Of a DNA stretch of 64,000 bases, positions 8,713-42,307 are shown in pieces. Each line of letters opens with the position of its first letter. The first letter of the stretch is position 1. This stretch comes from Candidatus Oxydemutatoraceae bacterium (GTDB taxonomy: Bacteria; Pseudomonadota; Gammaproteobacteria; Poriferisulfidales; Oxydemutatoraceae): positions 1,632,001-1,696,000 of the forward strand of contig OZ244717.1 in assembly GCA_965218975.1 (NCBI GenBank), read 5' to 3'. A program made the translations under genes and the position numbers. Under the pieces are notes generated by a model. That model was not told the DNA's origin. It ran no database searches and saw only the letters and a program-made list of their open reading frames with translations.

Positions 8713-9596
8713 GCAGAAACTGGAATGATGAGCTTGCCTTTGCGTGTTTCCAGTATTTCGCGCAGACTCGAACAATACGTTGCCAGTGCGCTCATAAGAG
8801 GCATTTTACGTTTTTTTACCAAAACCTGGGTGCTGAGTATTTCCAGTAAACTATTTTTTGCATTGCGGTCAAGCCCGTTAAATATCTCGGCTTGTAACAA
8901 TTCTGCAGCACATTGATCAACCAATGGCCGCAGGGGCTCCATAATGTCGTCCGCCAAGCAAAAAACATTGTATTGATTATGGTGGTGTACCCCAAAAGCG
9001 GGGTGCAGACCTGCTCCCATAAGCGCACGGGAACATGCAGTGCGAATTAAACTATAGCCATAGTTTAACAATACATTGATATCGCCTGAGCCATCTTGGT
9101 CGCATCTGAATCTTTTGCCGAAAAGCAACTTGAAATAGATACGGGTGGCTTGTGCCTCATGGTTGTTAATATCATTAGGCTGAACAGTTTTTGCCAGCCG
9201 CGCTAACGGGACGCTCTCTATACCGCGCATGAGCGCTAATGTCGTTGCCTGCGCATTGATTTTAGCCCGAATGATCTGTTGCCAAACGACATGCCGTGTT
9301 TCTTCCGGGGCGGAAGCCTGCATCCGCATAATTTTACCTTGGGTGCTATGGGCATCAAGCGCAAGCAACATGGAAGTCGGCAAATGACTCTCGTCGGTGA
9401 TAATGAGCGCGACATTCTGCTTTGCGCAATGTCGAAACACGCTTTGGCTGCAAGTAATTTGCGGATTATCCAGTATTAGAAAACCAATATCTTCAAAAGA
9501 AATACTATGCCTACCCTCGTTATTCTGAATGATCAGTTGGTTTAGGTTCACGCGAAGGCGTGCCGCAGAAGCAACCTCTATAATTCTACGAATCAT
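8709..9596 (-). CDS. cas1: Type II CRISPR-associated endonuclease Cas1
   Basis: WQQIIRAKI, NHEAQA..YF, LNYGYSLIR, G.HHHN.YN and LADDIMEPLRP motifs. Confidence 0.97.
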   Translation of the reverse strand: MIRRIIEVASAARLRVNLNQLIIQNNEGRHSISFEDIGFLILDNPQITCSQSVFRHCAKQNVALIITDESHLPTSMLLALDAHSTQGKIMRMQASAPEETRHVVWQQIIRAKINAQATTLALMRGIESVPLARLAKTVQPNDINNHEAQATRIYFKLLFGKRFRCDQDGSGDINVLLNYGYSLIRTACSRALMGAGLHPAFGVHHHNQYNVFCLADDIMEPLRPLVDQCAAELLQAEIFNGLDRNAKNSLLEILSTQVLVKKRKMPLMSALATYCSSLREILETRKGKLIIPVSA

Positions 9597-12500
9597 CCGG
9601 CAACCGACCTAAATTACCTAGTTGCGCTTTGCTAAAATTTATTTCGGACAATGATGATATGTTCCATAATCCCCAATCAGTATCGGTTCCGGAAACACTA
9701 TGGTGGCGCAGATAAAGCTTTAACTGATTTCCTGATTTGCTCATTTTTTGCACCCTGAAATAGGGGGTTGCTCTATGTTCGGGGGCAAAGTTATCCTTAT
9801 CCTTCTCAAAGGCGCCTGAGTCATCGCATCGCACCATGTCGTTATTGCACAGATGCAATTCGTAATACCATTCGCCTTCCCACTCTTCAGGTGGCATCTT
9901 ATTGATAATGGGCTGTCTGGTGCTTGCGCGTCTTACCGCCTCCAACATAGTGACCATGAGAAACTTTCTTTTTCTTTTCTTTCCTTCCTCACCGTTATGA
10001 AAAAGCGCAAAATGGTGGTTACTACCAGTCTGAACATAAGAATTCGCTATTTTTAGATAGGATTTCGTTTTGGTTTGAGCGCGACGCACACGTCGAATCG
10101 GTGTACTGAGCTCGCCTTTTTTGTTGATTACCCGTGGCGGTGTGTTGCTTAAAACTTTTTGTATTTCTCCAGATTTTTTTCCGACCAGATTATGCTCATC
10201 CAACCATTGATAAAGAACCTTGTGAATAGACTCTTCGGCAATCCATGTTTGCCCGGTGTGATTATGCCAGTCCCTGTCTTTAATTTTTTTCAGCAGCGCA
10301 CCATCTAATTCTTTGCGAGAAACCACCCATTCATTTCCATCACGTAATTTGACGCCGAATAGCGTCTCTTCGTGTAACGCGCCCCATATTTTTCGTTTTG
10401 TCATATGAGATACAACAGTCCTGTTCAGTCGGTCACGCAGAATATTGCGTACATCACCATCAGCTTGCCAGCTTTCGGGCAGTATAAGACGTCTTTCCTT
10501 AATCCATTCCTGTTTGGTTTTTCGACGCGACGGATTTTTATCATCTTGCTCTTGTTTATGCACTTCTATCATCGCTTTGAGCATGGCGCGATCGGTAATA
10601 GCGACAACAAAGGCATCCACCGCATGATGGCGGTGGTCCCGACGTGACTTTTCGGCTCGGATTGCCCTATATTGCAAGACCGTTTCACCGTCGTCATTAT
10701 CGCCATCTAACTGTTCGTATGCTCCGGAATCAGGTTGCTTAGGCAAAATATCATTCAGTCCCAACCGACGGCGTAATTCAGCAGTTGCCGCCCCAATGCC
10801 TATATCAACAGGCACGCCGTATTTTTCCAGCATCTTTTTGGAGGCAGTTGCGATATCATGTCCCTTCAATACATTCTCGTAAAATAGGATTTTTTGCATT
10901 CCTGAATTATCATCTTACCGGTAAGATACAATACTAACAGAGATCTGGGCACCATCGGTTGACCCAGCCATAGCCCCGCAAGGACCACTGCCATGACCCT
11001 CGCCCCCCTGCTCAACGCGGCCCAGCCCATCCCTCCCCACACCATCCTGGCCTTTGCCGCAGTCGTCGTCGGCGGCCTCCAGCTCCTAATGCCCAAGGGC
11101 ACCCGCAGGCACCTGCTGATGGGATACAGCTGGGTCGGTTTGCTGGCCTTTGTCGCCATCAGCGGCTTTTTCATTCATGAACTCAGGCTCTGGGGGCCAT
11201 TCAGCCCGGTCCACATCCTCAGTGCCTTCACCCTCTTGTCCATCTGGTGGGCAGTCTCGGCCGCGCGATCGGGCAACATCAGAAGGCATCAGCGCCTTAT
11301 GACGATTTTGTACGGCCTCGCGCTGATCCTGACCGGTGCCTTCACCTTCCTCCCCGGGCGCATCATGCATGAGGTCATAACAGGAACGGGTGCCATTTAA
11401 TTGACGTTCAACAAACTCGCCCTCACCCTCGGGGTTGTGTTGTGTTTTAAGGATATTTCGTTTTTTGGGCTGCAAAGGGCCTTTGTAATGCTCTTTAGCA
11501 AACTGTTATATGCTAAGCCAACGATCCTGATCATGACCCCACGCTTCATAAGAAGTACGTTGCCCCTTTTCCGCATTGCAGCTGTAACAGCTGACAACCG
11601 TATTCATATAGTTTTGACTGAATCCGGTATATGGCAAGATATGCTCTATTTCCGCGTTGCCGGAAAATAAGTCGTTAATACTGATCGGCTTACCGCAATA
11701 AAGGCATTTCTCTTCTTGTTCATTTTTCCACATTTTGTACTTGTTTCTATCGTCAGGATTGACGCGACGTACTCCGCTGCGCATCTCTTCCAAAGAAATG
11801 TTGGGGTTTCCTTCGTTATAAAACTTTAAGATTTCTTCTTCTGCGGTTTCATTCAGCTTTCTGTTTTCTCTTTGCCGGCTTGCTATTTTCTTGCGGTGTT
11901 CTTTGGAAGATTTCATTTCACGTGCCATCTCCACCCGGATAATGGCAGGCTTGCCGTAGCACCTAATAATGGAGTTAATTACGCGGCGTATCTCATATAA
12001 AGCCTTTTGCACAATGGGGTTGGCAATGTTAGGAACATCTTGAACACTTAATAAAAAGTCTTCTTCAGTTTCTTTGATAGGTTTGGTTATGCTTTCGCGT
12101 TGGCCTATTTCCTCCACCGCCCGGTAATAATCAAGACCTCTACGGAGATGCGGCAAAAGCGCGTTAATTGCCTTGAGGCTATGTTTCCCATAATCGCTTT
12201 CTATACCCTCGTTCATCGCAAGCCCCAAAGCGCCTTCCGTGAGGCTGCCTCCGGCTTGGTAGCACGGAAACTTCCAATGCCTAATCAGTCTGTCGTATAA
12301 GGCTTTTTTGTTATGCATGGTGATTAGATCTTCGACCAGCTCAGTTTGTTCTTTCTCACTCAACTGTTCCCATTCACTTGTACCGATGGAACGACTGATT
12401 GCCTGCATGGTTTTATTTCCCGGTACTCCGGTTTTGCCTCCGTCATCACTTTCTCGATTGTAATTTATAGCTTTTCGTTTCACGCCCAACGCATCGGCAA

Positions 12501-13650
12501 TTTTTTTCCAGGAAATGCGCCCGTGATTATTTAACTCATCAGGATTATTAGACAAATCCAAAAGCTGCTGTCGTTGTGCCGAATCGAGTCGGGTTCCGTC
12601 AATTCTAATATTATTAATCATCTGTAAAGTGCGGAATTCTTGAAACTCCAACCGCGCCATAGCTGCACGTTTTTTATGCGGGAAGATATTACAGTTACCG
12701 ACTTTGTTCTTTTGTAGTTGTAAGGGACGCTGGTCAAAAATCTTTTCTTTTACGGATCGCGCTTCTTCGTCCGACAACTTATAAAAAGTATTTTGTTTCT
12801 GCCAAATCGCATCAAATTCTTTTTCGTGCATTTCACGTTCAGCACGTAACTGTAACCGTTTACCTCCCGGTGCCTGTTCATCTTCCGGCACATCGAAAAG
12901 CGTGACGCGCTGGGGCGGCATCCGTCTGCGCTGAGATTCTTCCCAGATGAATTGTCCGATGGTTCTATTGCCTAATTTTTTTCTTAATTTTTTGATGCCC
13001 GACAATACCGGCGATACACGGCGTCTATCTTCCTTGTCTGCCATAGTGGACGTATCGTCTTTCAGGGTCGCAATATAAAATTCAGGCTTTGCAAAATTCA
13101 AGGATTTTATGAGATCGATATACTTTGCGCCGCGATTGCTGAAGTAGCCGCGTCTGCGCTGCAGATGTAGTAATAATCTCCCGAATTCATACGGTTCCAG
13201 TTTTTCCTCAAGAGAAAAATTGCGCATGGCGTACGAGGAGCAATAGAATTTTTCCGTCACAAGCCATTTATTAGACCACTTCTTTCCAAGCTTGCGTTCA
13301 GCGTACTTGCGGTCAATCTCATTGAGTATTTTTTCCGGATTCTGTGAATAATCATCAGGCAACAAACCTTTATTGACAAGTATTTCCAAAAGCTTTCTGC
13401 GTCTTCTTTTGTAATATGCGCGGCGATTACACGCACCGCGAGCCATGCGCCGTTTCTGGTTTTTAGGTACTTCGTTTTTTGCTTCGACCATCTCCAAAAA
13501 AATACGGGAATTCAAGGCACGTAAAGAGGTGGACTTGTACCCGGCATAAATTCCTTGATGCTCCCCTTGTTCTTTTTCACAATCCACCACGGCCCAACCG
13601 ATAGAGTTAGTACCGACGTCTAAACCTAAGATGTAAGGGTTGGAATTCAT
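9586..13650 (-). pseudogene. cas9: Type II-C cas9 interrupted by an in-frame TAA (11506-11508) and a 528-bp insertion (10857-11384)
   Basis: RuvC-I LGLDVGTNSIGWA, bridge helix, NPIVQKAL, IIRVEMARE, HNH EIEHILP...CNAEKG and RuvC-III DHRHHAVDA are all in one frame. No csn2 or cas4. Confidence 0.95.
10993..11400 (+). CDS. DUF2306-like membrane protein inserted antisense inside cas9
   Basis: PKGT..H..MGY.W, SGFFIHE, GPFSP.H.LS and GAFTFLPGRIMH motifs. GC-rich codon usage unlike the flanks. Last five codons and stop are borrowed from the cas9 antisense strand. Confidence 0.8.
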   Translation: MTLAPLLNAAQPIPPHTILAFAAVVVGGLQLLMPKGTRRHLLMGYSWVGLLAFVAISGFFIHELRLWGPFSPVHILSAFTLLSIWWAVSAARSGNIRRHQRLMTILYGLALILTGAFTFLPGRIMHEVITGTGAI

Positions 13651-20137: not shown

Positions 20138-21535
20138 GTGTCCATGAACCAACATTTATTATTTCTAACCGGCAAACTTGCCAAACCTAGTTTGGAGAAA
20201 GTGCTTGCCGAATTAAAAACAGATTTTCAATACACTGTGCACGAACTGGGCTTAAGTGTCGCGGCGTTAATGACCACACAGATCATTATACGCCGTCTCA
20301 AAGAAACTTTCGGAGCGGACCGCATCATCTTACCGGGCAGATTTCGCGGTGATTTGGCGGTGCTGAGCGCACACTTCAATGTTCCTTTTGAACGAGGTCC
20401 CGAAGAGCTTAAGGATCTACCTGAATTTTTCGGCAAACAAAAAAAACAAATTGATTTAAGCAACTATGATCTTAAAATCTTCGGCGAAATTACCGAAGCG
20501 CCAAATATGACGCCCGAGCAAATTCTTACTCAAGCCCAAACATTTGCGGCGGACGGAGCGGATGTGATTGATCTCGGTTTTTTACCCGATACATCTTTTA
20601 ATCATCTGAAGGAAACAATTACGCTGTTAAAAGAACAAAATTTTCTGGTCAGCGTCGATACTCCCAATACCGATATACTTTTACAAGCGGGGCATTGGGG
20701 GGCGGATTATTTGTTGAGTCTCAACAGGCAAAATCTATGGATCGCCGATGAAGTGCCGGCAATTCCTATCTTAATTCCCGATTCGCCGGATAATAAATCG
20801 AGCTTATATCGCTGTATCGATCAATTATTGGAAAAACGACGCCCCTTTATTGCCGACCCCTTGCTCAGTCCGATACACCACGGTTTTACCGAGTCTATCG
20901 TCTCTTATCACCAACTCAGGCAACGCTATCCTGATATAGAAATGATGCTAGGCGTCGGCAACGTTACCGAGTTGACTCATGCCGACACCATAGGAATGAA
21001 CGCATTGTTACTTGGTATCGCTTCAGAAATCGGCATAAGGCATATCTTGACCACTCAAGTCAGCGAGCATTGCCGTAAAGCGATTAAAGAAGCTGATATT
21101 GCCAGACGGATTTTCTTTGCCGCCCGCCAAACCAATGCGACTCCCACCGGCATTGATAATCGCCTGATGGCAGTGCATGAAAGAAAGCCTTTTATTTATA
21201 GCGCCAAAGAAATCGCTTGTTTTGCCGAGCAAATTAAAGATCCCGGATTTCGTATCCAATTGAGCGCCAATGGAATCCATATTTACAATCGCGATATTCA
21301 TCAAGTCACAACCGACCCTTTTGACGCTTACCCTGATCTCGATGTATCCGCAGACGGCGGGCATGCTTTTTATTTAGGAGTTGAACTCGCGCGGGCGCAA
21401 ATTGCTTGGCAATTGGGTAAACGATATAATCAAGATGAAGAGCTGGCATGGGGATGCGCGCTAGAGAAAGAAGAAGAGGATATAACTCGCTTCAAAGAAG
21501 CAGGCACTACGCTTTTAGAAAAACGAAAAAGGTAA
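20138..21535 (+). CDS. Dihydropteroate synthase-like pterin-binding protein (H4MPT biosynthesis Orf20-like)
   Basis: LTGKLA, VAALMT, RGPEELKD, GADVIDLG, GNVTELT and HAFYLG.EL..A motifs; cluster context. Confidence 0.85.
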   Translation: MSMNQHLLFLTGKLAKPSLEKVLAELKTDFQYTVHELGLSVAALMTTQIIIRRLKETFGADRIILPGRFRGDLAVLSAHFNVPFERGPEELKDLPEFFGKQKKQIDLSNYDLKIFGEITEAPNMTPEQILTQAQTFAADGADVIDLGFLPDTSFNHLKETITLLKEQNFLVSVDTPNTDILLQAGHWGADYLLSLNRQNLWIADEVPAIPILIPDSPDNKSSLYRCIDQLLEKRRPFIADPLLSPIHHGFTESIVSYHQLRQRYPDIEMMLGVGNVTELTHADTIGMNALLLGIASEIGIRHILTTQVSEHCRKAIKEADIARRIFFAARQTNATPTGIDNRLMAVHERKPFIYSAKEIACFAEQIKDPGFRIQLSANGIHIYNRDIHQVTTDPFDAYPDLDVSADGGHAFYLGVELARAQIAWQLGKRYNQDEELAWGCALEKEEEDITRFKEAGTTLLEKRKR

Positions 21536-21589
21536 AAACAGTTTCATTAGAAAATAAATAGCAGCGAACGCGCATTATCTTCACAAGTT

Positions 21590-22150
21590 ATGATTCGGGA
21601 AACCATCGTTACCACACAAAATGAAAACGGCAGCACGCATATCGCTCCTATGGGCGTACATGTGCGCAAAGACAGTCTGATTCTCGCGCCTTTCAAACCT
21701 TCGACGACATTAAATAACCTTATACGCGAACGTGCCGCTGTAATCAATTACACCGCCGATGTACGTGTTTTTGCCGGATGTTTTACGGGTCGCCATCACT
21801 GGAAAATGATGCCGGCGAAAAAAATTTCCGGGGAACGGCTTGCTTCCACGCTCGCGCATAAAGAAGTCAACATCACATACATCGAACAAGATGAAATGCG
21901 CCCGCGCTTTCATTGTCAAACTATCCATAGCGAAATACACGCTCCTTTTGAAGGATTCAATCGCGCGCAAGCGGCAGTCATTGAACTCGCCATATTGGTC
22001 AGTCGATTAAATCGTCTGCCGCAAGAAAAAGTGGATCAAGAAATCGCTTATTTAAAGATTGCGCTTGATAAGACGGCCGGAGAAAATGAGCATACCGCAT
22101 GGCAATGGCTGATGAATAAAGTGGAACAATTCAAGCAATCAACGACATGA
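21590..22150 (+). CDS. DUF447 family protein (H4MPT-linked Orf19-like)
   Basis: IRETIVTT, HIAPMG, PFKPSTTL.N, FNRAQAAVIE and KTAG..E motifs. Confidence 0.85.
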   Translation: MIRETIVTTQNENGSTHIAPMGVHVRKDSLILAPFKPSTTLNNLIRERAAVINYTADVRVFAGCFTGRHHWKMMPAKKISGERLASTLAHKEVNITYIEQDEMRPRFHCQTIHSEIHAPFEGFNRAQAAVIELAILVSRLNRLPQEKVDQEIAYLKIALDKTAGENEHTAWQWLMNKVEQFKQSTT

Positions 22151-22851
22151 CTCATTTACTCGCTAGCGTTCGCGACGCGGAAGAAGCACGCATCGCGCTA
22201 AAAGCTTCCATCGGTTTGTTGGATTTGAAAAATCCGGAAAATGGCGCATTAGGAGCGGTTGATATTGAAATTGTGCGTGAATGCGTCCCATTGACAAAAG
22301 GTATTTGCCCTATCAGTGCCACTATTGGCGATCTACCGCTTAATCCGGCTATGGCATTAGAAAAAATCGCAGCATTGGCAAAATGCGGTGTAGATTATAT
22401 TAAAGTCGGAATGTTCAACCCTGAGTATTTAACGACCTACCCGGCGGCATGTAAAAACTGTGCGGACAAAACCGCTTTAGTCGCGGTCTTATTTGCGGAT
22501 CGTTTCCCGGTATTCGAAGGGCCGGTGCGCTTGCTCGCACGAGCAGGCTTTACTGGCGTAATGTTGGATACCGCAGACAAAAAATCCGGAACGTTGTGTG
22601 ATTGTGTCTCTATCGAGCAACTGCAAGCTTTCGTCGAGCAAACCCGGCAACTATCATTACTTTGCGGTCTTGCCGGCTCATTGCGACAAGAAGACATCTC
22701 CAAACTGACGGCGCTCAAACCCGACTACCTCGGTTTCAGAACGGCTTTATGTAAAAACGAACAGCGTAACGGTAAACTGTCATTAACGGCGCTACAAACG
22801 TTGCTTAACCTGATGCCATCGGCGACCTGCCCGATAAAAGCGGCGTCATAG
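22147..22851 (+). CDS. mfnB: (5-formylfuran-3-yl)methyl phosphate synthase (Orf22/MfnB family)
   Basis: LLASV...EA, D.KNP..GALGA, SATIGD, DYIKVG, MLDTA.K, GLAGSL and GFR.ALC motifs. Confidence 0.88.
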   Translation: MTHLLASVRDAEEARIALKASIGLLDLKNPENGALGAVDIEIVRECVPLTKGICPISATIGDLPLNPAMALEKIAALAKCGVDYIKVGMFNPEYLTTYPAACKNCADKTALVAVLFADRFPVFEGPVRLLARAGFTGVMLDTADKKSGTLCDCVSIEQLQAFVEQTRQLSLLCGLAGSLRQEDISKLTALKPDYLGFRTALCKNEQRNGKLSLTALQTLLNLMPSATCPIKAAS

Positions 22852-22869
22852 CAAAGCAACAATATTCAA

Positions 22870-24273
22870 TCACGCAACCCAATGTTTGTACGGAGCTGTA
22901 GATTGATGGTTTAATAATAGAAATAGGGACGAAACTTTATCTAACGTTTCCTGATATTCATCTAAACCGTCAGAATCTGCCACAATCCCACCGCCACCAT
23001 AAAAGCTAAACCGATCGCCCTGACGTACCGCGGTGCGGATTGCGACATTCAAATCCATATCTCCATGCCGACTTAAATAACCAATTGCGCCACAGTAAAC
23101 ATTGCGCCGGTCTGGTTCCAATTCTTCAATAATCTGCATCGCCCGCACTTTAGGCGCTCCGGTAATCGACCCGCCCGGAAAGCAACCTTCAAGTAAATCT
23201 AACGCATCCTTATCGGCACGTAAATCGCCTTCAATTGTGCTGACCAAATGATGCACATTAGCGAATGTTTCAACGTCAAAAAGATTGCTTACATGTACCG
23301 ATGAAAAACGACAATTTTTACTGATATCATTCCGAATCAAGTCGACAATCATCAGATTTTCGGCACGGTCTTTATGACTATTTTTTAATTCCACAATTTG
23401 TTGATAATCGGAGTCGAAGTTCTGTAAACGCGGACGCGTTCCTTTGATCGGTTTGGTAATGATATGCCCGGCTTTGATTTGTAAAAACCTTTCGGGAGAA
23501 ATACTCAACACCTGAAAATCATCGAAATTGATATAGGCTGAAAACGGCGCGGCATTCAGCTGTCGAAGGCGCCGATATGCTTGCCAAGAATCCCCTTCCA
23601 CCAGTACTGAAAACTTCTGAGCAAGATTTACTTGATAACAATCGCCGGCATATATGTAGTCGATCACTTGATTAAATTTGTCCAAATAAGCTTGCTTACT
23701 CATATTACAAACCGGTTTGCTTATCACTCGAAACGGATGCACGCTACGTTTAGTTCGATGATTAACAAGCATCTCATAAACGGCATTAAAATCTATATTT
23801 TTATCGTGCACGTCACGCAAGCCGATAAATGTGGTTTGTCGCGCGGCATGATCTACGATAACCGCCCAATCATAAATCCCTAATTGCATCTCCGGAAGTA
23901 AATCCCCACTATGCTTGCTATCAGGCAAGTCTTCAAATCGCCGCCCGAGATCATAGCCAAAATAGCCGATTGCACCGGTTAAAAACGGATAAGTTTCAAG
24001 AGTTTTCAGCGGCGTAAGATAAGCTCTAACCACATGTAAAGGGTTGCCTGTGTATCGTTCTTCCGAACCTGCCGCACCTCGTACTGTCGTCCTACCGTAT
24101 TGACTGCTAATAATTACCCGCGGCAATGCCGCCAAAATGTCGAACCGCCCGCAGCTGCCGCCCAAACAATTACTATCTAAAAAAACCGCTCCCGACAAAT
24201 TCGCGATACGATCAAACAGTTGAGCGCTATCTTGTTCATATCGCAATCGTTTGATGAATACTTTCTGTTCCAT
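22870..24273 (-). CDS. pabB: Aminodeoxychorismate synthase component I
   Basis: GDCYQVN, SPERFL, PIKGTRPR, AENLMIVDL.RND and FPGGSITGAPK motifs. Confidence 0.93.
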   Translation of the reverse strand: MEQKVFIKRLRYEQDSAQLFDRIANLSGAVFLDSNCLGGSCGRFDILAALPRVIISSQYGRTTVRGAAGSEERYTGNPLHVVRAYLTPLKTLETYPFLTGAIGYFGYDLGRRFEDLPDSKHSGDLLPEMQLGIYDWAVIVDHAARQTTFIGLRDVHDKNIDFNAVYEMLVNHRTKRSVHPFRVISKPVCNMSKQAYLDKFNQVIDYIYAGDCYQVNLAQKFSVLVEGDSWQAYRRLRQLNAAPFSAYINFDDFQVLSISPERFLQIKAGHIITKPIKGTRPRLQNFDSDYQQIVELKNSHKDRAENLMIVDLIRNDISKNCRFSSVHVSNLFDVETFANVHHLVSTIEGDLRADKDALDLLEGCFPGGSITGAPKVRAMQIIEELEPDRRNVYCGAIGYLSRHGDMDLNVAIRTAVRQGDRFSFYGGGGIVADSDGLDEYQETLDKVSSLFLLLNHQSTAPYKHWVA

Positions 24274-24391
24274 AGCCCTTATTTATCACCTATAACACTA
24301 TGATTAGTAACAATATATCATTACTTGCAGTCCGATTCTTATACTCTCTATCGTCATTTTTCTTCAAGGAAAAGTATTGACTGATGTATGC

Positions 24392-25459
24392 CTATAAGAT
24401 GCGTTTCAAACGATCATTGCAGTATTTCCGGTATAACATCCAAGCGAGTGCAAGCGCCGATGCATAGTCGGTCGCATGATGATCCTTTGCCGCATACAAC
24501 GTGGCAAAATCAAGATATGGCGCTGCCGAAATTGATGCAATTTCCTTGACTAAAAAATTACCGACGCCCGCGCCTACTAGCGTTGTATGATTTAAACGAT
24601 ATTTGGCGCATAGATCGCGATAAGCATGCACGATCTTTATTTGTTGTTGATTGGCAATATGCTCTGCCAAGCGCAACCATATATCCGGACTTCCTGAGAA
24701 ATCATCACCAAACATCCGCGCAAAGCGCGAGATACTTTCAGTGATATTCTTACCTTTTCCATCACAACTCGGATATTGATCCGCATCCGCGGGCAACTTT
24801 TTAAGCAAACGGTACATATCTGCGGCATTAGCAAAATGTTCGGCGACAATCGGAAACTGTCGTCCGTTGATTTCAGCAGCTGAAGCAATCGCCATAATCG
24901 GAGTGCGTACAACACCGGTATATACCAATGTGCCCGACATTAGCCTTGCTCTATCATTCCAATCTTTTGTGCTCGCCACCTCCAATACTTTGCCATCGGA
25001 AAACGGCGCAAGGTCGGTGGTAGTACTGCCGATATCAATCAAAACGCCTTGAGCAAGATATGCCGCGGCGCATGTTGCGGTCGCATGCCAATTACTTGAA
25101 GCAACCGCCATTGGCATTTTTCGCGCAACCACGTTATCCACTAGTCCTTGATTTCCGGCATATACCCAAAACGGTTGCTGCAACAAATTACCGATGATTG
25201 TTAGAATCTTTGTTACCCCTTCATAACGACTATCGAAACAATCTGCCATCTCTCCGGTCATTGTCACTGCATGATAAATTGTATGATTCGTCGGAACATT
25301 CATTGCAGTATATGCTTGAGGAAATGCGGTGATTAATTTATCTACTCCGCGCCAAAGAGGACATGGGCATTGAATGCTTGCGACCATTTTTCCCGCACCA
25401 TTCAAACATGCTGCTTTGAGGTGCGCGCCACCGATATCCCAACCGATATAATTGTTCAC
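24392..25459 (-). CDS. Hydantoinase/oxoprolinase-like H4MPT-linked C1 protein (Orf9/MfnF-like)
   Basis: GWDIGGAHLK, TMTGEMAD.F, ASSNW.A, DIGSTTTD and YTGVVRTP motifs. Confidence 0.88.
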   Translation of the reverse strand: MNNYIGWDIGGAHLKAACLNGAGKMVASIQCPCPLWRGVDKLITAFPQAYTAMNVPTNHTIYHAVTMTGEMADCFDSRYEGVTKILTIIGNLLQQPFWVYAGNQGLVDNVVARKMPMAVASSNWHATATCAAAYLAQGVLIDIGSTTTDLAPFSDGKVLEVASTKDWNDRARLMSGTLVYTGVVRTPIMAIASAAEINGRQFPIVAEHFANAADMYRLLKKLPADADQYPSCDGKGKNITESISRFARMFGDDFSGSPDIWLRLAEHIANQQQIKIVHAYRDLCAKYRLNHTTLVGAGVGNFLVKEIASISAAPYLDFATLYAAKDHHATDYASALALAWMLYRKYCNDRLKRIL

Positions 25460-26445
25460 GATGCCGGCGTTATTTGTTGAGCGAGCGAGAAAATTAACTT
25501 TGCCGGATTAATGTTAATTGCATCCGATAATCCGATATAGGACAACGTCAAACGTGGATTGATTTCTAAGACCGATAGTGACCCCCGATGCACCAAAAAA
25601 TCAATTCCAACATAACCTGCAAGCCCGGGAATTGCGTAACTAATGTCTTGGGAGAGTTGTTCAAGATACAACCCGTCCCGATCTAGTTCATTTGCTTTGC
25701 AGCCACGTAACAATATCGTGCTTTCTTTGCGCTCGATACATTGTATGTTCGCCGATAATAGATGCGCCTGCGATGGATGGTACACGACACTTAAGCTTGC
25801 CGCTTGTCCGGATAAATAAGGTTGTACAACATAACGTGCCATTCCTTGTGACGAATCGGACAACCACACTGAGCGATTATTTATTCTTTCTGCGGTCAAG
25901 CGCGCCAATTGCTGCGGCGTTTCAATGATATATTGCCCTTCACAACCGATTCCATCGTCCGGTTTCAATATGATTGGAAATGAAAAAGGAATATCTTCCG
26001 CGGACATTTCTTGCTCCCATAGCCGGGTTTCAACACAGCGAATTCCGGCTTGTTGCAAAGCTTTCACGGTTAGCAGCTTGCTTGAGGCAATTGAAACCGC
26101 ACTTGAACCGCTGCTCAGCAGAGTACAAGCTTTCCGTTCGGATAGCTGGCATAGACGTAGAAGCTCGCCATTCGTTTCCGGAGCGATAGGTATGAATGCA
26201 TCGCAACGCACCAACAATTCTTCTAATACCGAAAAATAATCATCCGTTTGTACCGGCACAACCGTTGCCGCAAAATCTACCGGCGCTAAGCGCCGATCGC
26301 GTATCAATATCAACTCTGCTTGCGGAATTTCCTGCAAATCTCTACCCAGCGCGTTCAGCATCCGATCTCCTTCTTTACGTAAACTAACGGGTGGTAGTAC
26401 TTCCGGCGCACTGCCGGTAAAATACTCAAATAACAGAATCTTCAT
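25456..26445 (-). CDS. ATP-grasp protein (MfnD/tyramine-glutamate ligase-like)
   Basis: EG..ML.AL, IAPET.G.L, KPDDG.GC, G..GYVGID and EINPRLT.SY.GL motifs. Confidence 0.85.
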   Translation of the reverse strand: MKILLFEYFTGSAPEVLPPVSLRKEGDRMLNALGRDLQEIPQAELILIRDRRLAPVDFAATVVPVQTDDYFSVLEELLVRCDAFIPIAPETNGELLRLCQLSERKACTLLSSGSSAVSIASSKLLTVKALQQAGIRCVETRLWEQEMSAEDIPFSFPIILKPDDGIGCEGQYIIETPQQLARLTAERINNRSVWLSDSSQGMARYVVQPYLSGQAASLSVVYHPSQAHLLSANIQCIERKESTILLRGCKANELDRDGLYLEQLSQDISYAIPGLAGYVGIDFLVHRGSLSVLEINPRLTLSYIGLSDAININPAKLIFSLAQQITPAS

Positions 26446-26456
26446 TTGAACGTTTT

Positions 26457-27152
26457 ATGCTAAAGCTAATACCTGCAATTGATCTTAAAAATGGTTGGGT
26501 CGTCCGCGCTAACGCCGGCGAGCGAAAAAGCTATCGCCCGTTAGCGACACCCCTGTTTCCTTCCGCTATTCCAAAAAAAGTATTGGAATTCTTATACCGG
26601 CGCTTGCAATTTCGCACATTTTATTTTGCTGACCTAGACGCCATTATGCAGACAGGAAACAATCAAAAAATCATACTTAAATTTCTCGAAACTCACACGG
26701 ATACTGTCTGTTGGGTAGATGCGGGGGTCCGCCGACAACACGACTACCTGCAATTAAAGAAATTGCATCCCAATATAATACCAATTATACCGACAGAAAC
26801 ATTGTGCGACATCGCTTTGTTAAAAACAGCTGCCGGCGACAATTATATTTTGTCACTTGATTTCAGAAATCATCGCTTACTAGGCATAAGAGAAATTTTA
26901 GAACAATACGATGATTGGCCAAAGACAGTTATCGCGCTATCACTAGATGCGATCGGCAGCAATACGCCTGACTTTACAGTACTCAATCAAGCACTCCGGC
27001 ATCAACGGCAAAACCGCCGCAAAAACGAGCTAAAACGGCAAGTATTTTTTGGCGGCGGAGTACGCAATGGCGAGGACTTGCGAACCATCCGCAAAGCAGG
27101 CGCTGCCGGCGTGCTAATTGCGGCTGCGTTGTACGACGGTGTACTGCCCTAA
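26457..27152 (+). CDS. HisA/HisF-like TIM-barrel protein (H4MPT-linked Orf17-like)
   Basis: IPAIDLKNG.VV.A..G.R..YRP, YFADLDAI, WVDAG and GGGVR motifs. Confidence 0.85.
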   Translation: MLKLIPAIDLKNGWVVRANAGERKSYRPLATPLFPSAIPKKVLEFLYRRLQFRTFYFADLDAIMQTGNNQKIILKFLETHTDTVCWVDAGVRRQHDYLQLKKLHPNIIPIIPTETLCDIALLKTAAGDNYILSLDFRNHRLLGIREILEQYDDWPKTVIALSLDAIGSNTPDFTVLNQALRHQRQNRRKNELKRQVFFGGGVRNGEDLRTIRKAGAAGVLIAAALYDGVLP

Positions 27153-27183: not shown

Positions 27184-28425
27184 TTACGAGCGCCGCTCGC
27201 CACCTCGCACGATGCGCAACGGCAGACTTTGCTCTCCTTGACGAATTTGCCGCCGCCATCGCGATTGGCCTAGCTGCCGATTCTGAAAGTGAGAAGGTTT
27301 AATTTTGTCACCACTCTCCTGTAGCTCGTCCAGTGACGGACCTGCGAAGCAACAATAGGATTGCGCGGTTTCATAAATCTGCAACTCATTCAGATTCGGC
27401 AAATAATGAATGAGCCGCTCCCAAATAAACAAACTAATGTGTTCCGTACTCGAACGCCATGCTAAGGACGGGTCTGCAAGATTTAGGCTCTGATGGTCCA
27501 ACTGTTTAATAACCTCTCGCTCCACCACTGATTTCAGATAGCCATAATCAACGACAAATCCGGTTTGCGGATCAATTCGATCATGTACTTTGACAATCAA
27601 ATCGTATCGCCCGCCATGTAGATTGGAACATTTGCCGGGGTGGTCGGTAATAAAGTGTGCGCAATCAAATGTCAACTGTTTCGCGACTGTTGCTTGCGGT
27701 TGAGGGGAATAATAACGCTCCGACACGCCCGGAATATCTTCAATCTGAGGCTTTAAAATATTCAATAGCGTCCTTGAATCATTACGCATCAAAGTCCGCA
27801 GTATATATTGCCTGCCTTGTCCGTTCAGCAACCGGAATCGGATACCGAAATACCGCTCGAAAATTTCTTGCAGACGCTCGGCAATAGTTTGATCATTGAC
27901 TGTGAAAAAAACATAACCGCCGTAAAAAGCGCTGCTTGCCGCAAGCAGAATTGCGCTAAAAAGCAACCATTCGCTCACACTCCAATCTTGAGTAATCGAT
28001 TCGCTCTCGGCTGTGGCATTTTGCCGCCTTGCTTTTAGATGGTTCAATGCAACGACTCGATGCGTCGTGCGATTGAATATGTATTCCTGCCGAAATTGAA
28101 ATCCGAACGGCTGCAAACGTTCCTTCAAATAGAGCAGTTGGTCCAATTGTCGAACTTCCCCCGCAATATAACAAAACAAATCATCGTGTTTCAATTTCCC
28201 GGCGAATTGTAAAGCGGTGAAAATAATCCTCGCCTCACGTGTGACGGCGCCACAGTGAGCATAACCGTCTATCGATTCCTGTTGGTTGATTAGTTCATGC
28301 GCAACAAGCACGTCAAGCGACAAACTATAACGCAACGCATATTCCTGCAGGGTCAAACCCGAACACCGAAGCAAATGTTTGTTGTCAAGCGGTTTCACCG
28401 ATTGACCGCATTCCAAACACTGCAT
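27184..28425 (-). CDS. Fusion protein: N-terminal Zn-finger-like, central LAGLIDADG-like and C-terminal QueD/6-pyruvoyl-tetrahydropterin synthase-like domains
   Basis: C-terminal FDCAH...CSNLHGG...GFVVDY...LDH..LN...E.I...IYET; N-terminal CLECG...HLL.C.GLTLQEYA; GGAGG RBS before ATG 28425. The PTPS-like domain is well supported; the other two are tentative. Confidence 0.75.
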   Translation of the reverse strand: MQCLECGQSVKPLDNKHLLRCSGLTLQEYALRYSLSLDVLVAHELINQQESIDGYAHCGAVTREARIIFTALQFAGKLKHDDLFCYIAGEVRQLDQLLYLKERLQPFGFQFRQEYIFNRTTHRVVALNHLKARRQNATAESESITQDWSVSEWLLFSAILLAASSAFYGGYVFFTVNDQTIAERLQEIFERYFGIRFRLLNGQGRQYILRTLMRNDSRTLLNILKPQIEDIPGVSERYYSPQPQATVAKQLTFDCAHFITDHPGKCSNLHGGRYDLIVKVHDRIDPQTGFVVDYGYLKSVVEREVIKQLDHQSLNLADPSLAWRSSTEHISLFIWERLIHYLPNLNELQIYETAQSYCCFAGPSLDELQESGDKIKPSHFQNRQLGQSRWRRQIRQGEQSLPLRIVRGGERRS

Positions 28426-28609
28426 AGAAACCTCCCAAAGTTCCGGCACAAGCTGCTATTTTACCGCATCCTGAGAAAAGCCAACCTCTATCATAGTCCC
28501 ACCGCAAGCAGAATTTACCCCATTGCGCTCTAAAGAACCTAACTGCCGAACACAAAATGCATCAAATCAAAAGATCCATGCTAAAGTATACCCATAAAGC
28601 ACTTTTAAC
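28112..28609. repeat. Left copy of a decayed long direct repeat (partner 30803-31159)
   Basis: Colinear blocks such as AAATCATCG.TTTCAATTTCCC, TTGATTAGTTCATG, GCAAGCAGAATTTACC and AACTGCCGAACA occur in both copies. Confidence 0.85.
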
Positions 28610-28705
28610 AAAGTGCTGCAACCGAACCGGAATACCGATGCGCCATGCTTCGGTGGAGCAACCGTGCCCACGGTTGCTTTTATCTTTGAGGCCAAACAAA
28701 TACAA

Positions 28706-29692
28706 ATGAAAAGATACCTTGTATATCATTCCACCATCCGACGGTCCAACGGTTTAGACCATGAAATCGCCAACTTAATGTGTTTTCTGAGAGAGGCATT
28801 TCTTTTAAATAGAATTCCTGTAATTACAAAACCAAACCTTCATAAAAGAAATAATCTTGACTATTCCACCGAACATATGGACTGGGATATGTTTATTGAT
28901 TTAGATTATGAAAAGAAAATAATTAAACTAAAACGCAAAGAAATGGAAATAATCGGATTAAAAGAATTCGGAGGACTAAAGTTTAAAAAAGAGCAAATAG
29001 CTAAAGTGGGACCTAAACAAAAAGTGCCCGAAGAAGTTAAAGATAAACCTTTAGTTATTCGTTATGTTAACACTTCGCTATGGAAAAAGTCTCAATACCG
29101 CAATCTGCACACCATTCAACTTGGCGATGCAGAGCCTTCTGCTTATGTTCAAAAAATTGGCAATACTGTGGTTGAAAATCTACCACAAGATTTTGTATAT
29201 CTGCATATAAGAAGAGAAGACCGGCTTTATAAGAATAACAAACCACATCTCAAAATTTTTACATCGCCCTTTTATGTCAAAATCTTCCTAAATTCATATA
29301 TCGGCAAAGGCCGGGATATATATTTAGGCACAGACGAAAAAGATCGCAACTTCTTTGATAATTTAAACAAGGATTATCAAATAATCACTTATAGAAATTA
29401 TCCTCAACTTAAAAAACTTATCAGCGCGGAAGATAATAATAAACCAAACAATTACTTGCTTTATACTATAGAAAGGTATATTGGTAAGAAGAGTTCCCTC
29501 AAAATAGAAACCACCAAAAAACTTGCAATCAAAAACGGCATTGAACTTGAACTTTGTCCCGAATACATGAGAAAAATATTTCCTTTCCTTCGAAACAACA
29601 GATTGGGGGAAATAATCATTGCAACCTTGGGTTATGTACACCTATTATTCCTTTTACTAAAATATCCATTTCGTCAAAAACCTAAAGTTTGA
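28706..29692 (+). CDS. O-fucosyltransferase-like (GT-B) protein, AT-rich
   Basis: YLHIRREDR and IYLGTDE resemble the H.RR.D and Y.ATDE motifs of GDP-fucose transferases; C-terminal hydrophobic segment. Start reassigned to ATG 28706. Confidence 0.6.
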   Translation: MKRYLVYHSTIRRSNGLDHEIANLMCFLREAFLLNRIPVITKPNLHKRNNLDYSTEHMDWDMFIDLDYEKKIIKLKRKEMEIIGLKEFGGLKFKKEQIAKVGPKQKVPEEVKDKPLVIRYVNTSLWKKSQYRNLHTIQLGDAEPSAYVQKIGNTVVENLPQDFVYLHIRREDRLYKNNKPHLKIFTSPFYVKIFLNSYIGKGRDIYLGTDEKDRNFFDNLNKDYQIITYRNYPQLKKLISAEDNNKPNNYLLYTIERYIGKKSSLKIETTKKLAIKNGIELELCPEYMRKIFPFLRNNRLGEIIIATLGYVHLLFLLLKYPFRQKPKV

Positions 29693-29767
29693 CATCCTTT
29701 ACCGGAAATTGCCATCACAATGCAGCCATTAGAAAAACTGTAACTTTTTAATCAATCCCAACTTCTC

Positions 29768-30733
29768 TTATATATTCATCCTTCTCAAAATAGACTCCAA
29801 TATGCCCCTGCCCCCTTTTTTCTTCAGAATGCTAGCCAGCCTCCTCCTCCTTGTAAGGTATCTTATAAATTTAAATTTTATTTTTAATATAACTCTTAAT
29901 GTAGAAAAAACCTCTAAACCTTTCCCTTTGATTAAAATTTTACTCAATAAGAAAACAGTTTCGGTTAAAACAAACTTCTTCTTCCTGGTGTGGTTTAAGA
30001 ATATCTTACTTTCTTTATCAAAAAACAGGCCATACCATTTCTTAATGGTCGTAACTTTATTGGATACTTTTATATATGTATAAATCCTATTCTCATAACT
30101 TTTTATTTGGTGTTTTTTAGTTAAAAGACTAAATATACTTTGGTCGTGTCTATTCGCAACAAACCCTGGATAATTAGGTAATCCGCATTGGTTTGGGTTG
30201 TCTGTTATTATTCTTTCGTCTTGAGAGTAGTACAACCATTCTTCAGCCAAGTTTATAGTTTTTTTCGACTTCCTTAAAACAAAAGAAGCTGCGTATACCT
30301 GAGGAGAATCCGTATATTCGTAAGAATCAACATCCATCAATATAAAAGCATCTCTTTTGGTCCAAACTTTTTCTCGATCACGACGACGACGTGAAGCCGA
30401 CCAACAAAAAACATCGCTATTATCACGTTTCATCGTTCTGATAACACTCTCAACGTCTTTGACAAAGTAAGCGCCCGAATCACAGTAGAACAGATAATCT
30501 TCACTGCCTATCTCCAATAACGTGTTTCTGACTATGTAAGACTTCCAAAGCCAGTATCCTCCGCCTTTTATATATTCCAGAATATGTTTATTCTTATTGT
30601 AAAACTCTGAATCAATATTTTCCGGCGAAAAAGAAATGACTTTATCAAAGCCTCCGATCAGCAGGCCCATCTTACTATTTAAGATTTGCCTTTGTTTGAA
30701 TACATTATTAGAGTAATTTATTAGTATCTTCAT
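29768..30733 (-). CDS. Glycosyltransferase-like conserved hypothetical protein, AT-rich
   Basis: GYWLWK.YI, YCDSG, WTKRD and RHDQSIFSLL motifs (DUF1647-like/GT-A-like from recall). Confidence 0.55.
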   Translation of the reverse strand: MKILINYSNNVFKQRQILNSKMGLLIGGFDKVISFSPENIDSEFYNKNKHILEYIKGGGYWLWKSYIVRNTLLEIGSEDYLFYCDSGAYFVKDVESVIRTMKRDNSDVFCWSASRRRRDREKVWTKRDAFILMDVDSYEYTDSPQVYAASFVLRKSKKTINLAEEWLYYSQDERIITDNPNQCGLPNYPGFVANRHDQSIFSLLTKKHQIKSYENRIYTYIKVSNKVTTIKKWYGLFFDKESKIFLNHTRKKKFVLTETVFLLSKILIKGKGLEVFSTLRVILKIKFKFIRYLTRRRRLASILKKKGGRGILESILRRMNI

Positions 30734-39923: not shown

Positions 39924-40396
39924 GTAAGACAAGCGCAAAATTGCTTCGCACGCTTAGATAATGGTTTTCAAATATTCTTTTAACTTACTGCCTATTTCCG
40001 AGTGGCGCAAACCCATTTCAATATTAGCATGCATATAGCCCCATTTATTTCCGCAGTCGTAACGTTTCCCGGAAAATTTATAAGCAAAAATGTCCTTTGT
40101 TTTCAACACTTCAACTAATGCGTCGGTTAATTGAACCTCGCCTTGCACCCCTGCCAAATGCTTGCTTAATTGCTCAAGCACGTCTGATGTTAGTATATAT
40201 CGTCCGATGATGGCGAGATTCCCCGACGCTTCCCCAATTGCAGGTTTTTCAACTAAACTTGAAACCCGCAGAACATGGTCGGAAATCGGATCACCGCTCA
40301 CTATGCCGTAGCGACTCACTTCTGACGGCGTCACCTCCTCAACCGCAACTACACTGCATTGATGCTTTTGGTATACTTCAATTAGCTGTTGCAGCA
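39779..40396. repeat. 618-bp direct repeat, left copy (dxs 3' end plus truncated galU 3' half)
   Basis: Appears identical to 42308-42925 and abuts the IS terminal repeat. Confidence 0.95.
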
Positions 40397-42307
40397 CTTG
40401 ACTTCGTAGGTTTTGTCTCGTAAGTGATTGATATTATTGCCTTCAGGATTCTCAAGGGCACTACATTACGGTGTTGTTTGTAGCCCTCCGCGCTCAGCTT
40501 CCCCCAGGGCGTGACTTGTCGGGAAGCGGGAACGGAGCTTCGTTCCATTTCAGGCCGACACTACGGTAGATCCTGTTGGCGTCCGCACTCGCGCGGCTCG
40601 GCATCGCATACCGCTTCTGTGTGTCGGTACATACCAAGATGCTCAACTGCAAGGTGTCGAGCTCGCGCCGGATCCGTTCCGCGCTCATCGGGAAGCCCAG
40701 TGCCTTAAGCCGCCGGCGCAGCTGCTGCAAGCAGCAGAAGGCCATGTAGCAGATCGCAATGTGTGCCTGGATACGCCGCGGCTTCCAGTGAAAGATCGGG
40801 CGGATGCAAAGGTCATGCTTGTTGGTGCGAAAGCAATGTTCTACTTCCCACAACCGACGGTACTGCGACAGCAATTCCTTTGGCGCCATCTCCTCGTTGC
40901 CGTGTGCGATGATTGCGCGCAGGCCGTCCCAACGCGCCGCATCGGCCACCTTGGCCGCATCAATCTTAACCCGGCCCTTTGCGGGGAAGCTTAAGTAACA
41001 GGCATAGCCGCGCGCCACGAAACCTGCCGGGCGCTCGCTGCGTTGATACTTCCGGCGCAACTGTGACAATATGCGCTCCCGAACTTCTTGATCCTTGCGC
41101 GCGCGCCGGCGTGAATAGGTGACTATGATCCGCCGGCCTTCGTGGCGAATCATCCGGTAACGCAGGTCCTGCGTTTTGAGCCAGCCTTGATCGTCTGCTG
41201 CACTGAGGGCCTGCAGCTTGATCTTGGCCGGGGCCGACTTGAGACGATAGCCGAGCACATAGGCCAAGCCCTGCTCCTGCAGGAATGTCTGGTTCTCACG
41301 GCTCAGCATCGCCGCATCGGCCACTACTGTAAATACAGCACCCGGATGTCTCTATTGCAGACTTGTCACTGCCTGCATCAAGGTTTTGCCCTCAAAGGTG
41401 TTGCCCGGCAACAGTGCGTAGTCCACCGGCAGACCGTCGCAGGTCGTCATCAGTGCCAGTAACACCTGGCAGCGGTGCGGCTTGCCGTCCTTACTATAAC
41501 CTTTCGCGCGCAACGGGTCCTCTTGCTCGCTCTCGAAGTACAGGGTCGTGCAATCAAAGAAGAACACCTTGAGGGGCTGATCATACAACTTCTGTGCCGC
41601 CTGATGAGACTGTTCCCGGATGCGTGCAATCACCGCCTCCTCAAGGTGATCCATAGTCTGGTAAACCCGGTCGAGATTGAGCGAAACGCCGCTTCGTTCG
41701 AGCTCGCACACCGTGGCACGCTTGCTCTGCGGCTGCGCGATACGCGCCAGCACCAGCTCGCGCAGAATGCGGTTGGCTGCCGTACGCCGTGCACCCAACA
41801 CCTGGTTCCAACCCAGGTGCGAATAAATCTGCGTGAACGCCTCGCGCACCCCAAGCATCAGCCGCATCTCCTCACGGCATTCGGCAAGATCTACCCCGAA
41901 GCGCGCCAGACGTGGTGCCAGCCGCGCCTCAGCTGCGAGATCCGCGTACTGCTTCGGTGTGAACAGCGATTGCTGTGCTGTACCGGCTTGGCGCAGCTCT
42001 TCCAAGGTGACCTCGCCGAGCTTGCGCAAAGATGCAAGCTGCTCGGGACTGTCGGCAGTGCCGATATGCCGCACCACACGCTGACGGGGACCATCGGCAG
42101 TGCGCACGGAACGTACAATCTGCAAGCGAGTGCGGCCACGTTCGGGGTCATATTTTTCACGCAAGTACATAGACCCGAATGATAACCCAAAATCCAAGTG
42201 AAAACAAGCCTGGGGGCACTACAATGGATTTTTCGGCGGCGCCCGGATAACCCTATGATAATAAAAGATTTATTTTTTGCCCAAAGGTCAAAACCTACGA
42301 AGTCAAG
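40397..42307 (-). mobile_element. IS1634-family insertion sequence (1911 bp)
   Basis: Terminal inverted repeats CTTGACTTCGTAGGTTTTG / CAAAACCTACGAAGTCAAG; GC-rich relative to host; long flanking direct repeat. Confidence 0.92.
40494..42170 (-). pseudogene. IS1634-family transposase with a premature TAG at 41352-41354
   Basis: FFDCTTLYFE, GYSKDGK, VADAAM, Y..LWEVEHCFR..K.DL.IRP.FH and HIAIC motifs; both ORFs are in the same frame. Confidence 0.9.

Follow-up and report, generated by a model that had tools for sequence, protein, structure and literature searches.

The HGH pair of known PTPS enzymes binds the catalytic zinc (PMC9894224), and Cx3HGH is the motif by which QueD is defined (PMC9894224, PMC5041015). 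QueD2, a 'low-zinc' paralogue defined by Cx4HGH, is a PTPS protein that has extensions and whose metal site is unorthodox, and in the Acinetobacter baumannii protein (PDB 7v0f) a His from another protomer's catalytic triad binds Zn; cluster 10 of its sequence similarity network holds proteins of 275-300 amino acids with a ~180-residue N-terminal domain described as being of unknown function (PMC9894224). PTPS-III and PTPS-I/III, with the motifs ExxHGH and CExxHGH, are PTPS members tied to pterin supply. Here we describe a gene in a 64,000-nucleotide stretch of the Candidatus Oxydemutatoraceae bacterium genome (assembly GCA_965218975.1, contig OZ244717.1, positions 1,632,001 to 1,696,000 of the forward strand; hereafter the window, in which all short coordinates below are given). 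It encodes a PTPS/QueD domain that carries Cx3HGG in place of Cx3HGH and is preceded by a zinc finger and a LAGLIDADG fold, and it lies in a gene island for tetrahydromethanopterin (H4MPT) and methylofuran. The comparisons below indicate that it descends from a phage-type homing endonuclease-QueD fusion. Its product is probably concerned with handling or sensing a pterin, and not with queuosine synthesis.

The gene occupies 27184..28425 on the minus strand and encodes 413 amino acids plus a stop codon (27184-27186), as the initial annotation had it. The ATG at 28425 is the likely start, since a Shine-Dalgarno box, GGGAGG (28431..28436, minus), lies 5 nt upstream and homologues open at the same MxC; given those homologues, initiation at a GTG (28449) is unlikely. 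The protein consists, in this order, of a Ros/MucR-type CCHC zinc finger, a LAGLIDADG fold and a PTPS/QueD T-fold, and the three domain calls made earlier from the letters alone all hold under Pfam, Foldseek, structural alignment and profile-profile alignment. The AlphaFold2 model, built on 33 homologues, has a mean predicted local distance difference test score of 86.8 and a predicted template modelling score of 0.83. Confidence is lower in the C-terminal tail (residues 363-413; 27187..27339, minus), in which the pattern GPSL...F....LG.S..R is conserved.

The PTPS/QueD T-fold spans residues 244-362 (27340..27696, minus). Pfam PTPS (PF01242) matches residues 247-360 with an E-value of 1.3e-27 and 96.6 bits against a cut-off of 22.4, and the modelled T-fold superposes on E. 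coli QueD (PDB 4ntm) over 116 residues with a Z score of 15.8 and an rmsd (root-mean-square deviation) of 2.1 Å; across 4ntm and 4ntk together, Z is 15.7-15.8, rmsd 2.1 Å and identity 27-28%. The alignment pairs H257 with His16 of the E. coli enzyme, C266 with Cys27, H270 with His31 and D310-H311 with Asp70-His71, and Glu110 also has an aligned equivalent in the T-fold of the fusion (roles of the E. coli residues from PMC9894224). G272 is paired with His33, so that the substitution of LHGG for LHGH noticed at the outset is genuine. The motif reads C266-S-N-L-H270-G-G272-R-Y274 (27604..27630, minus).

This altered motif is a property of the whole family. A word-indexed search returned 521 homologues at E ≤ 0.001, and the motif counts given here rest on the 120 listed, which are 393-463 amino acids long, 44-69% identical to the query and aligned over 94-100% of it. 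Cx3HGG occurs in all 120 and Cx3HGH in none, and the [LF]DH..[LIV]N motif is kept in all 120. In an alignment of 33 of these homologues, H257, C266, H270, G271, G272, R273, Y274, D310, H311 and E352 are among the invariant residues of the T-fold. In NCBIfam the protein falls within the 6PTHBS/QueD group yet stays under both curated cut-offs, with a score of 71.3 against 89.25 for the QueD equivalog TIGR03367. Neither of the other motif classes fits. Cys266 is followed by a variable residue (S, A, T, E or K) and HGH is absent, so the domain has neither the conserved Glu nor the HGH of PTPS-III and PTPS-I/III, although all share membership of a family tied to pterin supply. Its spacing is Cx3 and its last His is Gly, unlike the Cx4HGH of QueD2, which it matches in structure with a Z score of 10.0. 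Compared with E. coli QueD, the fusion has lost His33 and is longer by about 245 residues at the N-terminus and by a tail of 50 residues. The extended QueD2 proteins of cluster 10 are set apart from the 413-residue fusion by their length. Since the metal site of QueD2 is rebuilt with a His of another protomer (PMC9894224), HGG need not mean an inactive domain.

The middle of the protein (residues 60-230; 27736..28248, minus) is modelled as two alpha-beta-beta-alpha-beta-beta halves between the finger and the T-fold. Foldseek matched this domain with E-values from 2e-5 to 6e-4, including WhiA (2e-5), I-SceI (2e-4) and I-DmoI (3e-4), and VIA-align gave Z scores of 11.5 for I-DmoI (153 residues, model positions 61-227), 10.8 for PI-PfuI, 10.2 for I-SceI and 9.5-9.7 for WhiA. 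No LAGLIDADG family of Pfam scores on the middle region of the protein itself at E ≤ 1, but the profile of the fusion family aligns with that of its LAGLIDADG_2-positive relatives at 100% probability and an E-value of 2e-79 over 372 columns. As a lead only, the best match of residues 1-246 in the ESM Atlas is a LAGLIDADG_3 cluster, with a score of 0.83. At the sequence level, F74/A75 and A163/S164 replace the catalytic Asp of the relatives' LLGD and MDDG motifs, the window protein reading LQFAG and LLAASS where the relatives read LLGDG/A and WYMDDG. Thus the middle domain is, on alignment and model, a LAGLIDADG fold without its acidic catalytic residues. The fold had been recognised in the initial annotation together with a lack of intein splice motifs, and indeed Pfam finds no Intein_splicing or Hint match in the protein; the endonuclease domain is placed N-terminal to the PTPS domain rather than inserted within it.

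The domain therefore shares its fold with the LAGLIDADG_2 homing endonucleases I-SceI and I-DmoI (Z 10.2-11.5 over 153-174 residues) and is tied to them through fusion relatives whose PF03161 matches reach E 1.5e-34, but it differs from them in lacking both catalytic Asp residues and a Pfam match of its own, in being joined to an enzyme domain and in being near neutral rather than basic. Its mean net charge is −1.3 across 33 members versus +3.6 in intact-motif relatives, with +4 in the window protein. Conserved polar or basic residues (Q113, H122, R123, N128 and R210) lie on predicted beta-strands, and Q113, H122, R123 and R210 are invariant in the 33-homologue alignment. WhiA, a transcription factor for sporulation and cell division, consists of a dead LAGLIDADG domain and a helix-turn-helix (HTH), and offers a parallel, in that its LAGLIDADG domain, too, is degenerate and single-chain and sits in a protein that is not a nuclease. 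However, the fusion shows no C-terminal HTH, that part being PTPS; its LAGLIDADG partners are a zinc finger and a T-fold, and no sequence relationship was found between the fusion protein and WhiA.

The finger (residues 1-46; 28288..28425, minus) had likewise been likened to Ros/MucR at first sight, and ROS_MUCR (PF05443) matches residues 2-46 at 28.0 bits against a cut-off of 25.4, the match being confined to profile positions 66-110, which make up its finger part. The four ligands C3, C6, H17 and C21, spaced C-x2-C-x10-H-x3-C, are invariant in 33/33 aligned homologues, and C-x2-C-x(8-12)-H-x3-C is present near the N-terminus in 119 of the 120 listed homologues, the exception (P0018) beginning after the finger. 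The last zinc ligand of the Ros finger is His. That of the fusion is Cys, and its finger is acidic across the family: net charge averages −3.2 in the 33 aligned members against +1.2 in intact-motif relatives (−1 in the window protein). In two genomes of about 1 Mb (G023 and G025) the finger cysteines are lost while the LAGLIDADG-like and HGG parts are kept; these finger-less copies sit directly after fae.

Altogether, 63 positions spread over all three domains are invariant in the 33-homologue alignment. Mean pairwise identity is 0.61 in the finger, 0.47 and 0.33 in the two LAGLIDADG halves, 0.68 in the PTPS domain, which is the most conserved part, and 0.37 in the tail. These patterns indicate that the three-domain fusion is a family with fixed features, not a one-off accident. 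The homologues carry the database name '6-carboxytetrahydropterin synthase', which is probably wrong for this family; the literature on COG0720 warns of paralogue mis-annotation (PMC5041015). Among 401 Pseudomonadota genomes sampled, that of the window (G000) alone matched beyond the PTPS part. Our literature search found the combination, the HGG signature and the island setting undescribed; it did not compare the PTPS-IV, -V and -VI motifs, so an already named subfamily is possible. The parts are known already, and as far as this literature search goes their combination, signature and setting appear to be new.

Distant relatives reveal where the architecture came from. An exhaustive search of 50%-identity representatives gave 29 proteins at E ≤ 1e-30, a number that rises to 318 at the looser threshold of E ≤ 1e-10, and 23 of the listed distant representatives were scanned with Pfam. 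LAGLIDADG_2 (E 5.5e-4 to 1.5e-34) followed by PTPS was found in 18/23, nine of these 18 also giving a weak ROS_MUCR match; in place of the finger, the N-terminus is Myb-like in P0155 and weakly GcrA-like in P0158 (E 0.0054). Distant fusion relatives show canonical LAGLIDADG motifs (LLGDG/A, WYMDDG). Cx3HGH is retained in P0142, P0150, P0155, P0157, P0159, P0169, P0186, P0210 and P0229, and HGG occurs together with intact nuclease motifs in P0131-P0139. In a maximum-likelihood tree of the PTPS domain (46 rows), 22 of the 23 HGG rows fall in one clade with support of 94/85, P0164 being outside resolution, and the clade is nested among HGH-type fusions; the tree is rooted at its midpoint only and its bootstrap stopped short of convergence. 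The subfamily of the window (11 rows) is a clade with support of 100/99 in the same midpoint-rooted tree.

Full fusions were present at two of the 78 IMG/VR loci returned. One (L090) encodes 449 amino acids with a CCHH finger, intact nuclease motifs and CSTNHGH, the other (L091) 440 amino acids, and both lie near radical-SAM (QueE-like) genes on phage contigs. L090 (2667-7836) also holds an intein-bearing ribonucleotide reductase gene beside its fusion, and the fusion is followed immediately by another PTPS gene, whose motif has the unusual spacing Cx6HGH. PHROGs divides such fusions into 'homing endonuclease with LAGLIDADG motif' and 'QueD-like'. A tblastn search with P0135 against 50,697 cultured-phage records found plain QueD in Bacillus phage BCD7 only. 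In a metagenome scan for the HGG forms with intact motifs, which was drawn to LAGLIDADG motifs, 3/80 loci reach into the PTPS part, as judged by the range of the query matched, and the remainder are endonuclease-only matches.

Since distant relatives of the same architecture have intact LAGLIDADG_2 motifs, some with HGH and two on phage contigs beside QueE-like genes, we read the window gene as a domesticated descendant of a phage-type zinc-finger LAGLIDADG endonuclease-QueD fusion. That a homing-endonuclease module had been domesticated and fused to a PTPS domain was suggested at the start, and the distant fusions and the profile alignment noted above bear this out. The order of events would have been fusion of endonuclease and QueD, then the change from HGH to HGG, and then loss of the nuclease residues. 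Such a graded series, from intact-motif endonuclease-QueD fusions (some of them on phage contigs) through HGG with an intact nuclease to HGG with a dead nuclease in a cofactor island, offers a clean case for studying the conversion of a selfish nuclease to host use.

We used a genome scan, which returned 80 fusion loci, to examine the gene neighbourhood within ±7 kb. The loci come from sulfur-oxidising and related Gammaproteobacteria (among them Candidatus Thiodiazotropha, Sedimenticola, Ca. Oxydemutatoraceae, Ca. Porisulfidus and Chromatiales) and from two Betaproteobacteria metagenome-assembled genomes. The typical order is fae, then the fusion on the same strand, then a HisA-like gene, orf17, facing it. 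Fae is present at 70/80 loci and lies directly upstream on the same strand, 65-340 bp away, at 64; a convergent HisA-like gene is directly downstream at 64/80, and at least one island gene is found at 76/80. This survey bears out the early suggestion that the protein belongs with the adjacent cluster. The remaining four loci (L018, L023, L025 and L029) have no island gene, and their other neighbours, like those of some loci with few island genes, include MerR, RecJ, HflX, DNA methylases, a NotI-type enzyme and MoaE/MoeA. The HisA-like family corresponds to orf17, which is needed for methylofuran in Methylobacterium extorquens and whose role within the pathway is described as unclear, and the ATP-grasp genes orfY and orf5 correspond to MyfA and MyfB (PMC8141765). 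In Ca. Thiodiazotropha endolucinida the island reads mptG-like, mtdB, ATP-grasp, mch, RimK-like, CitG-like, fae and the fusion, followed by orf17 in the opposite direction, ATP-grasp, HydA-like, pabB, an amino-acid kinase, DUF6647 and a short PTPS gene. In 42 fae-fusion spacers read by eye, a hairpin with a T-run follows fae in many and a TATAAT-like box precedes the fusion in several.

In the window, the orf17 homologue (26457..27152, plus; Pfam His_biosynth) is convergent with the fusion, with 31 bp between the stop codons. The rest of this arm of the island (20138..26445, no strand assigned) holds DUF6513/pterin-binding, DUF447, MfnB, PabB, hydantoinase-A-like and ATP-grasp genes, as identified by Pfam and synteny counts. 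The island is split in this genome, with fae and mch about 320 kb from the fusion. A low-GC stretch at 28613-30733, upstream of the fusion (GC 0.378 versus ~0.45), contains open reading frames of 359 and 321 amino acids with no Pfam match; it occupies the usual place of fae and is probably the insertion that split the island. PADLOC gave no match for the fusion protein or for these two neighbouring frames. Outside the window, mch, fae and tgt lie within 6 kb (G000:C1:1333694-1339636), placing a queuosine gene beside the other half of the island. At 16/80 loci a short, divergent PTPS paralogue with CENLHGH, a PTPS-I/III type motif (PMC5041015), lies at most 7 kb from the fusion (e.g. L086 14462-14974); it is absent from the window's genome. 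In one genome (G012:C1:2055735-2056371), three tandem copies of the first ~43 mch codons stand just upstream of the full mch gene.

The distribution of the gene separates it from the queuosine pathway. We compared the window's genome with 40 relatives, making 41 genomes, which as kin are not independent, so that no statistical claim is made. A long-frame fusion (open frame of 381-449 amino acids) is present in 24/41, and 15/41 have no PTPS match. The other two (G026 and G040) lack the fusion and carry a short PTPS gene of PTPS-III type next to a short-chain dehydrogenase gene (L271 1224-1787, minus; L272 1022-1654, plus), its product having ERLHGH and no catalytic Cys. QueE is found in 37/41 genomes, a strong QueC match also in 37/41, Mch in 39/41 and FolB in 41/41, and the same four genomes (G018, G021, G025 and G037) are without QueE and without a strong QueC match. 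Fusion and queE/queC dissociate both ways. Fourteen of the 41 genomes have queE and queC without any detected PTPS gene (G001, G005, G006, G009, G010, G013, G014, G022, G030, G032, G033, G034, G036 and G038), most of them being 95-100% complete, with G014 at 85% and G033 at 87%; and three have the fusion without queE/queC (G018, 85% complete; G025, 97%; G037, 93%). An Mch match accompanies the fusion in 24/24 carriers, that of G018 being a fragment only. The 14 PTPS-less genomes, which either have an unrecognised 6-carboxytetrahydropterin synthase or feed the pathway in another way, expose a gap, namely that many related genomes keep queE/queC without a recognisable QueD.

Five larger genomes reached through the fusion loci all carry further PTPS genes. 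Four of the five have a canonical-size short PTPS elsewhere (106-139 bits) and the fifth a two-repeat PTPS; in all five a second short PTPS lies 7-12 kb from the fusion, and in L086 this is the CENLHGH type. A search for a separate canonical queD, as proposed in the initial annotation, thus has a divided outcome, with none in the window's genome and one of canonical size in most of the larger ones. Given the 14 relatives with queE/queC but no PTPS gene, the three with the fusion but no queE/queC and the extra PTPS genes of the larger genomes, the fusion is unlikely to be the cell's dedicated QueD. It is instead an accessory member of the island whose fate is uncoupled from queE/queC. A bypass of FolB, the role of PTPS-III-type proteins, was also considered and rejected, FolB being present in all 41 genomes.

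We consider that the best single reading of the fusion protein is an accessory pterin enzyme or binder of the H4MPT/methylofuran island, working through its T-fold pocket, and would put the probability of this at roughly 40%. Domains, residues, ancestry and setting are observations; for substrate, catalysis and oligomer state the following would be expected. The PTPS domain would assemble like other T-folds, Glu352 would anchor a 6-substituted pterin, and Cys266 and Asp310/His311 would act on the pterin side chain. His257 and His270 might form an altered metal site, which a His311 contributed by another subunit would perhaps complete in the manner of QueD2; alternatively, the site might be metal-free. 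The dead LAGLIDADG domain, packed against the enzyme, could then serve as a scaffold, with the finger as an optional add-on. The invariance of H257, C266, H270, D310, H311 and E352 in the 33 aligned homologues favours an enzyme, and a long-frame PTPS gene is kept in 8/9 genomes of genus g8, which are 0.9-1.2 Mb in size. If the protein does act on, or sense, H4MPT- or methylofuran-branch pterins, it would be a further, uncharacterised component of a pathway in which genes such as orf17 are still unassigned. Several points weigh against a catalytic or binding role in the island. The zinc ligand equivalent to His33 is Gly in every member, so that binding without catalysis is conceivable. Genomes can do without the gene, which is absent in 17/41 relatives though Mch is present in 39/41, and in G005 it is cleanly absent, fae and orf17 being joined across a 107-bp gap in an otherwise identical cluster that in the relative G004 reads fae-fusion-orf17. 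No pathway step is known to require it, and the presence of FolB throughout makes a FolB bypass unneeded. Finally, the finger (0.61) is nearly as conserved as the enzyme domain (0.68), unlike a mere appendage.

This last point, together with the invariant CCHC ligands and the adjoining LAGLIDADG fold, would fit a pterin-responsive DNA-binding regulator or 'trigger enzyme', in which a DNA site is recognised by the finger together with the dead LAGLIDADG saddle and the T-fold, on binding an H4MPT-branch pterin, shifts oligomer state or conformation and so tunes expression of the island genes. Both domain types bind DNA elsewhere, and the exchange of the finger for Myb-like or weakly GcrA-like domains in distant kin suggests selection for DNA binding. 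The gene seems to be its own unit, with a terminator-like hairpin after fae, TATAAT-like boxes and the convergent orf17; it is dispensable in 17 relatives, as regulators often are; the conserved residues on the predicted beta-strands of the LAGLIDADG fold would suit DNA contact; and in WhiA, matched structurally here, a dead LAGLIDADG domain already forms part of a transcription factor. A ligand-gated transcription factor of this kind would mean that, after WhiA, a homing endonuclease had been turned into a regulator a second, independent time, here starting from a phage endonuclease-QueD fusion and using parts that are not known to have served together in that role; PTPS chemistry running with an altered or absent zinc site would be equally new. 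However, the finger is on average acidic and the LAGLIDADG domain near neutral where both are positively charged in intact-motif kin, the finger cysteines are gone in the two small genomes that keep the remaining parts, and a pure sensor would not need the invariant catalytic Cys and Asp-His. Nor did the intergenic regions within ±7 kb of 16 loci, one per fusion-protein cluster at 62% identity, share any 8-, 9- or 10-mer above shuffled controls, although this method is a weak test; and inspection of the 42 fae-fusion spacers by eye gave shared terminators and TATAAT-like boxes but no common site. Of the two roles offered in the initial annotation, regulator or pterin enzyme, we therefore lean towards the enzyme or binder and regard the regulator, weakened by the acidic finger, the loss of the finger and the lack of a shared operator, as a tentative second.

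The T-fold might instead simply be the organism's 6-carboxytetrahydropterin synthase for queuosine, with the endonuclease part an inert relic. In favour of this, it is the only PTPS-family gene in a single contig of 2.08 Mb that is 99.4% complete and that also holds queE, queC, queF, tgt and folB. Among solved structures QueD/PTPS come closest, QueE-like radical-SAM genes are found near the HGH-type relatives of phage contigs, and the databases name the homologues accordingly. The prospect that it would prove to be a sole, normally active QueD of described architecture, named early on as fatal to a new function, is thus borne out as regards sole PTPS gene, but the phyletic patterns argue against a plain QueD: fusion and queE/queC dissociate in both directions, the larger genomes have separate PTPS genes, the Cx3HGH signature is absent and the TIGR03367 score falls short, and the locus lies in the H4MPT island, away from the que genes. 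We therefore hold a plain QueD to be improbable. More improbable by far is a selfish homing-endonuclease gene decaying between fae and orf17 without any host function. Its ancestry, its presence or absence at one junction of otherwise identical clusters in G004 and G005, and the DNA methylases and NotI-type restriction enzyme near a few loci would all fit such an element, but the frames are intact at ~410 amino acids, the 63 invariant positions extend over all domains of homologues whose identity to the query is only 44-69%, ~1-Mb genomes keep the gene, and the window's subfamily is the strongly supported clade described above. An accessory pterin enzyme or binder remains the reading that we prefer.

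Two features elsewhere in the window were recorded in passing. A CRISPR locus occupies 8709-13650 (minus), with Cas1 at 8709-9596 and a Cas9 that is seemingly split into 9586-10899 (RuvC_III) and 11506-13650 (alpha-helical lobe and HNH), about 600 bp apart, and so either disrupted or mis-framed. The composition profile shows a GC spike of 0.565, against ~0.45, at 40001-42000.

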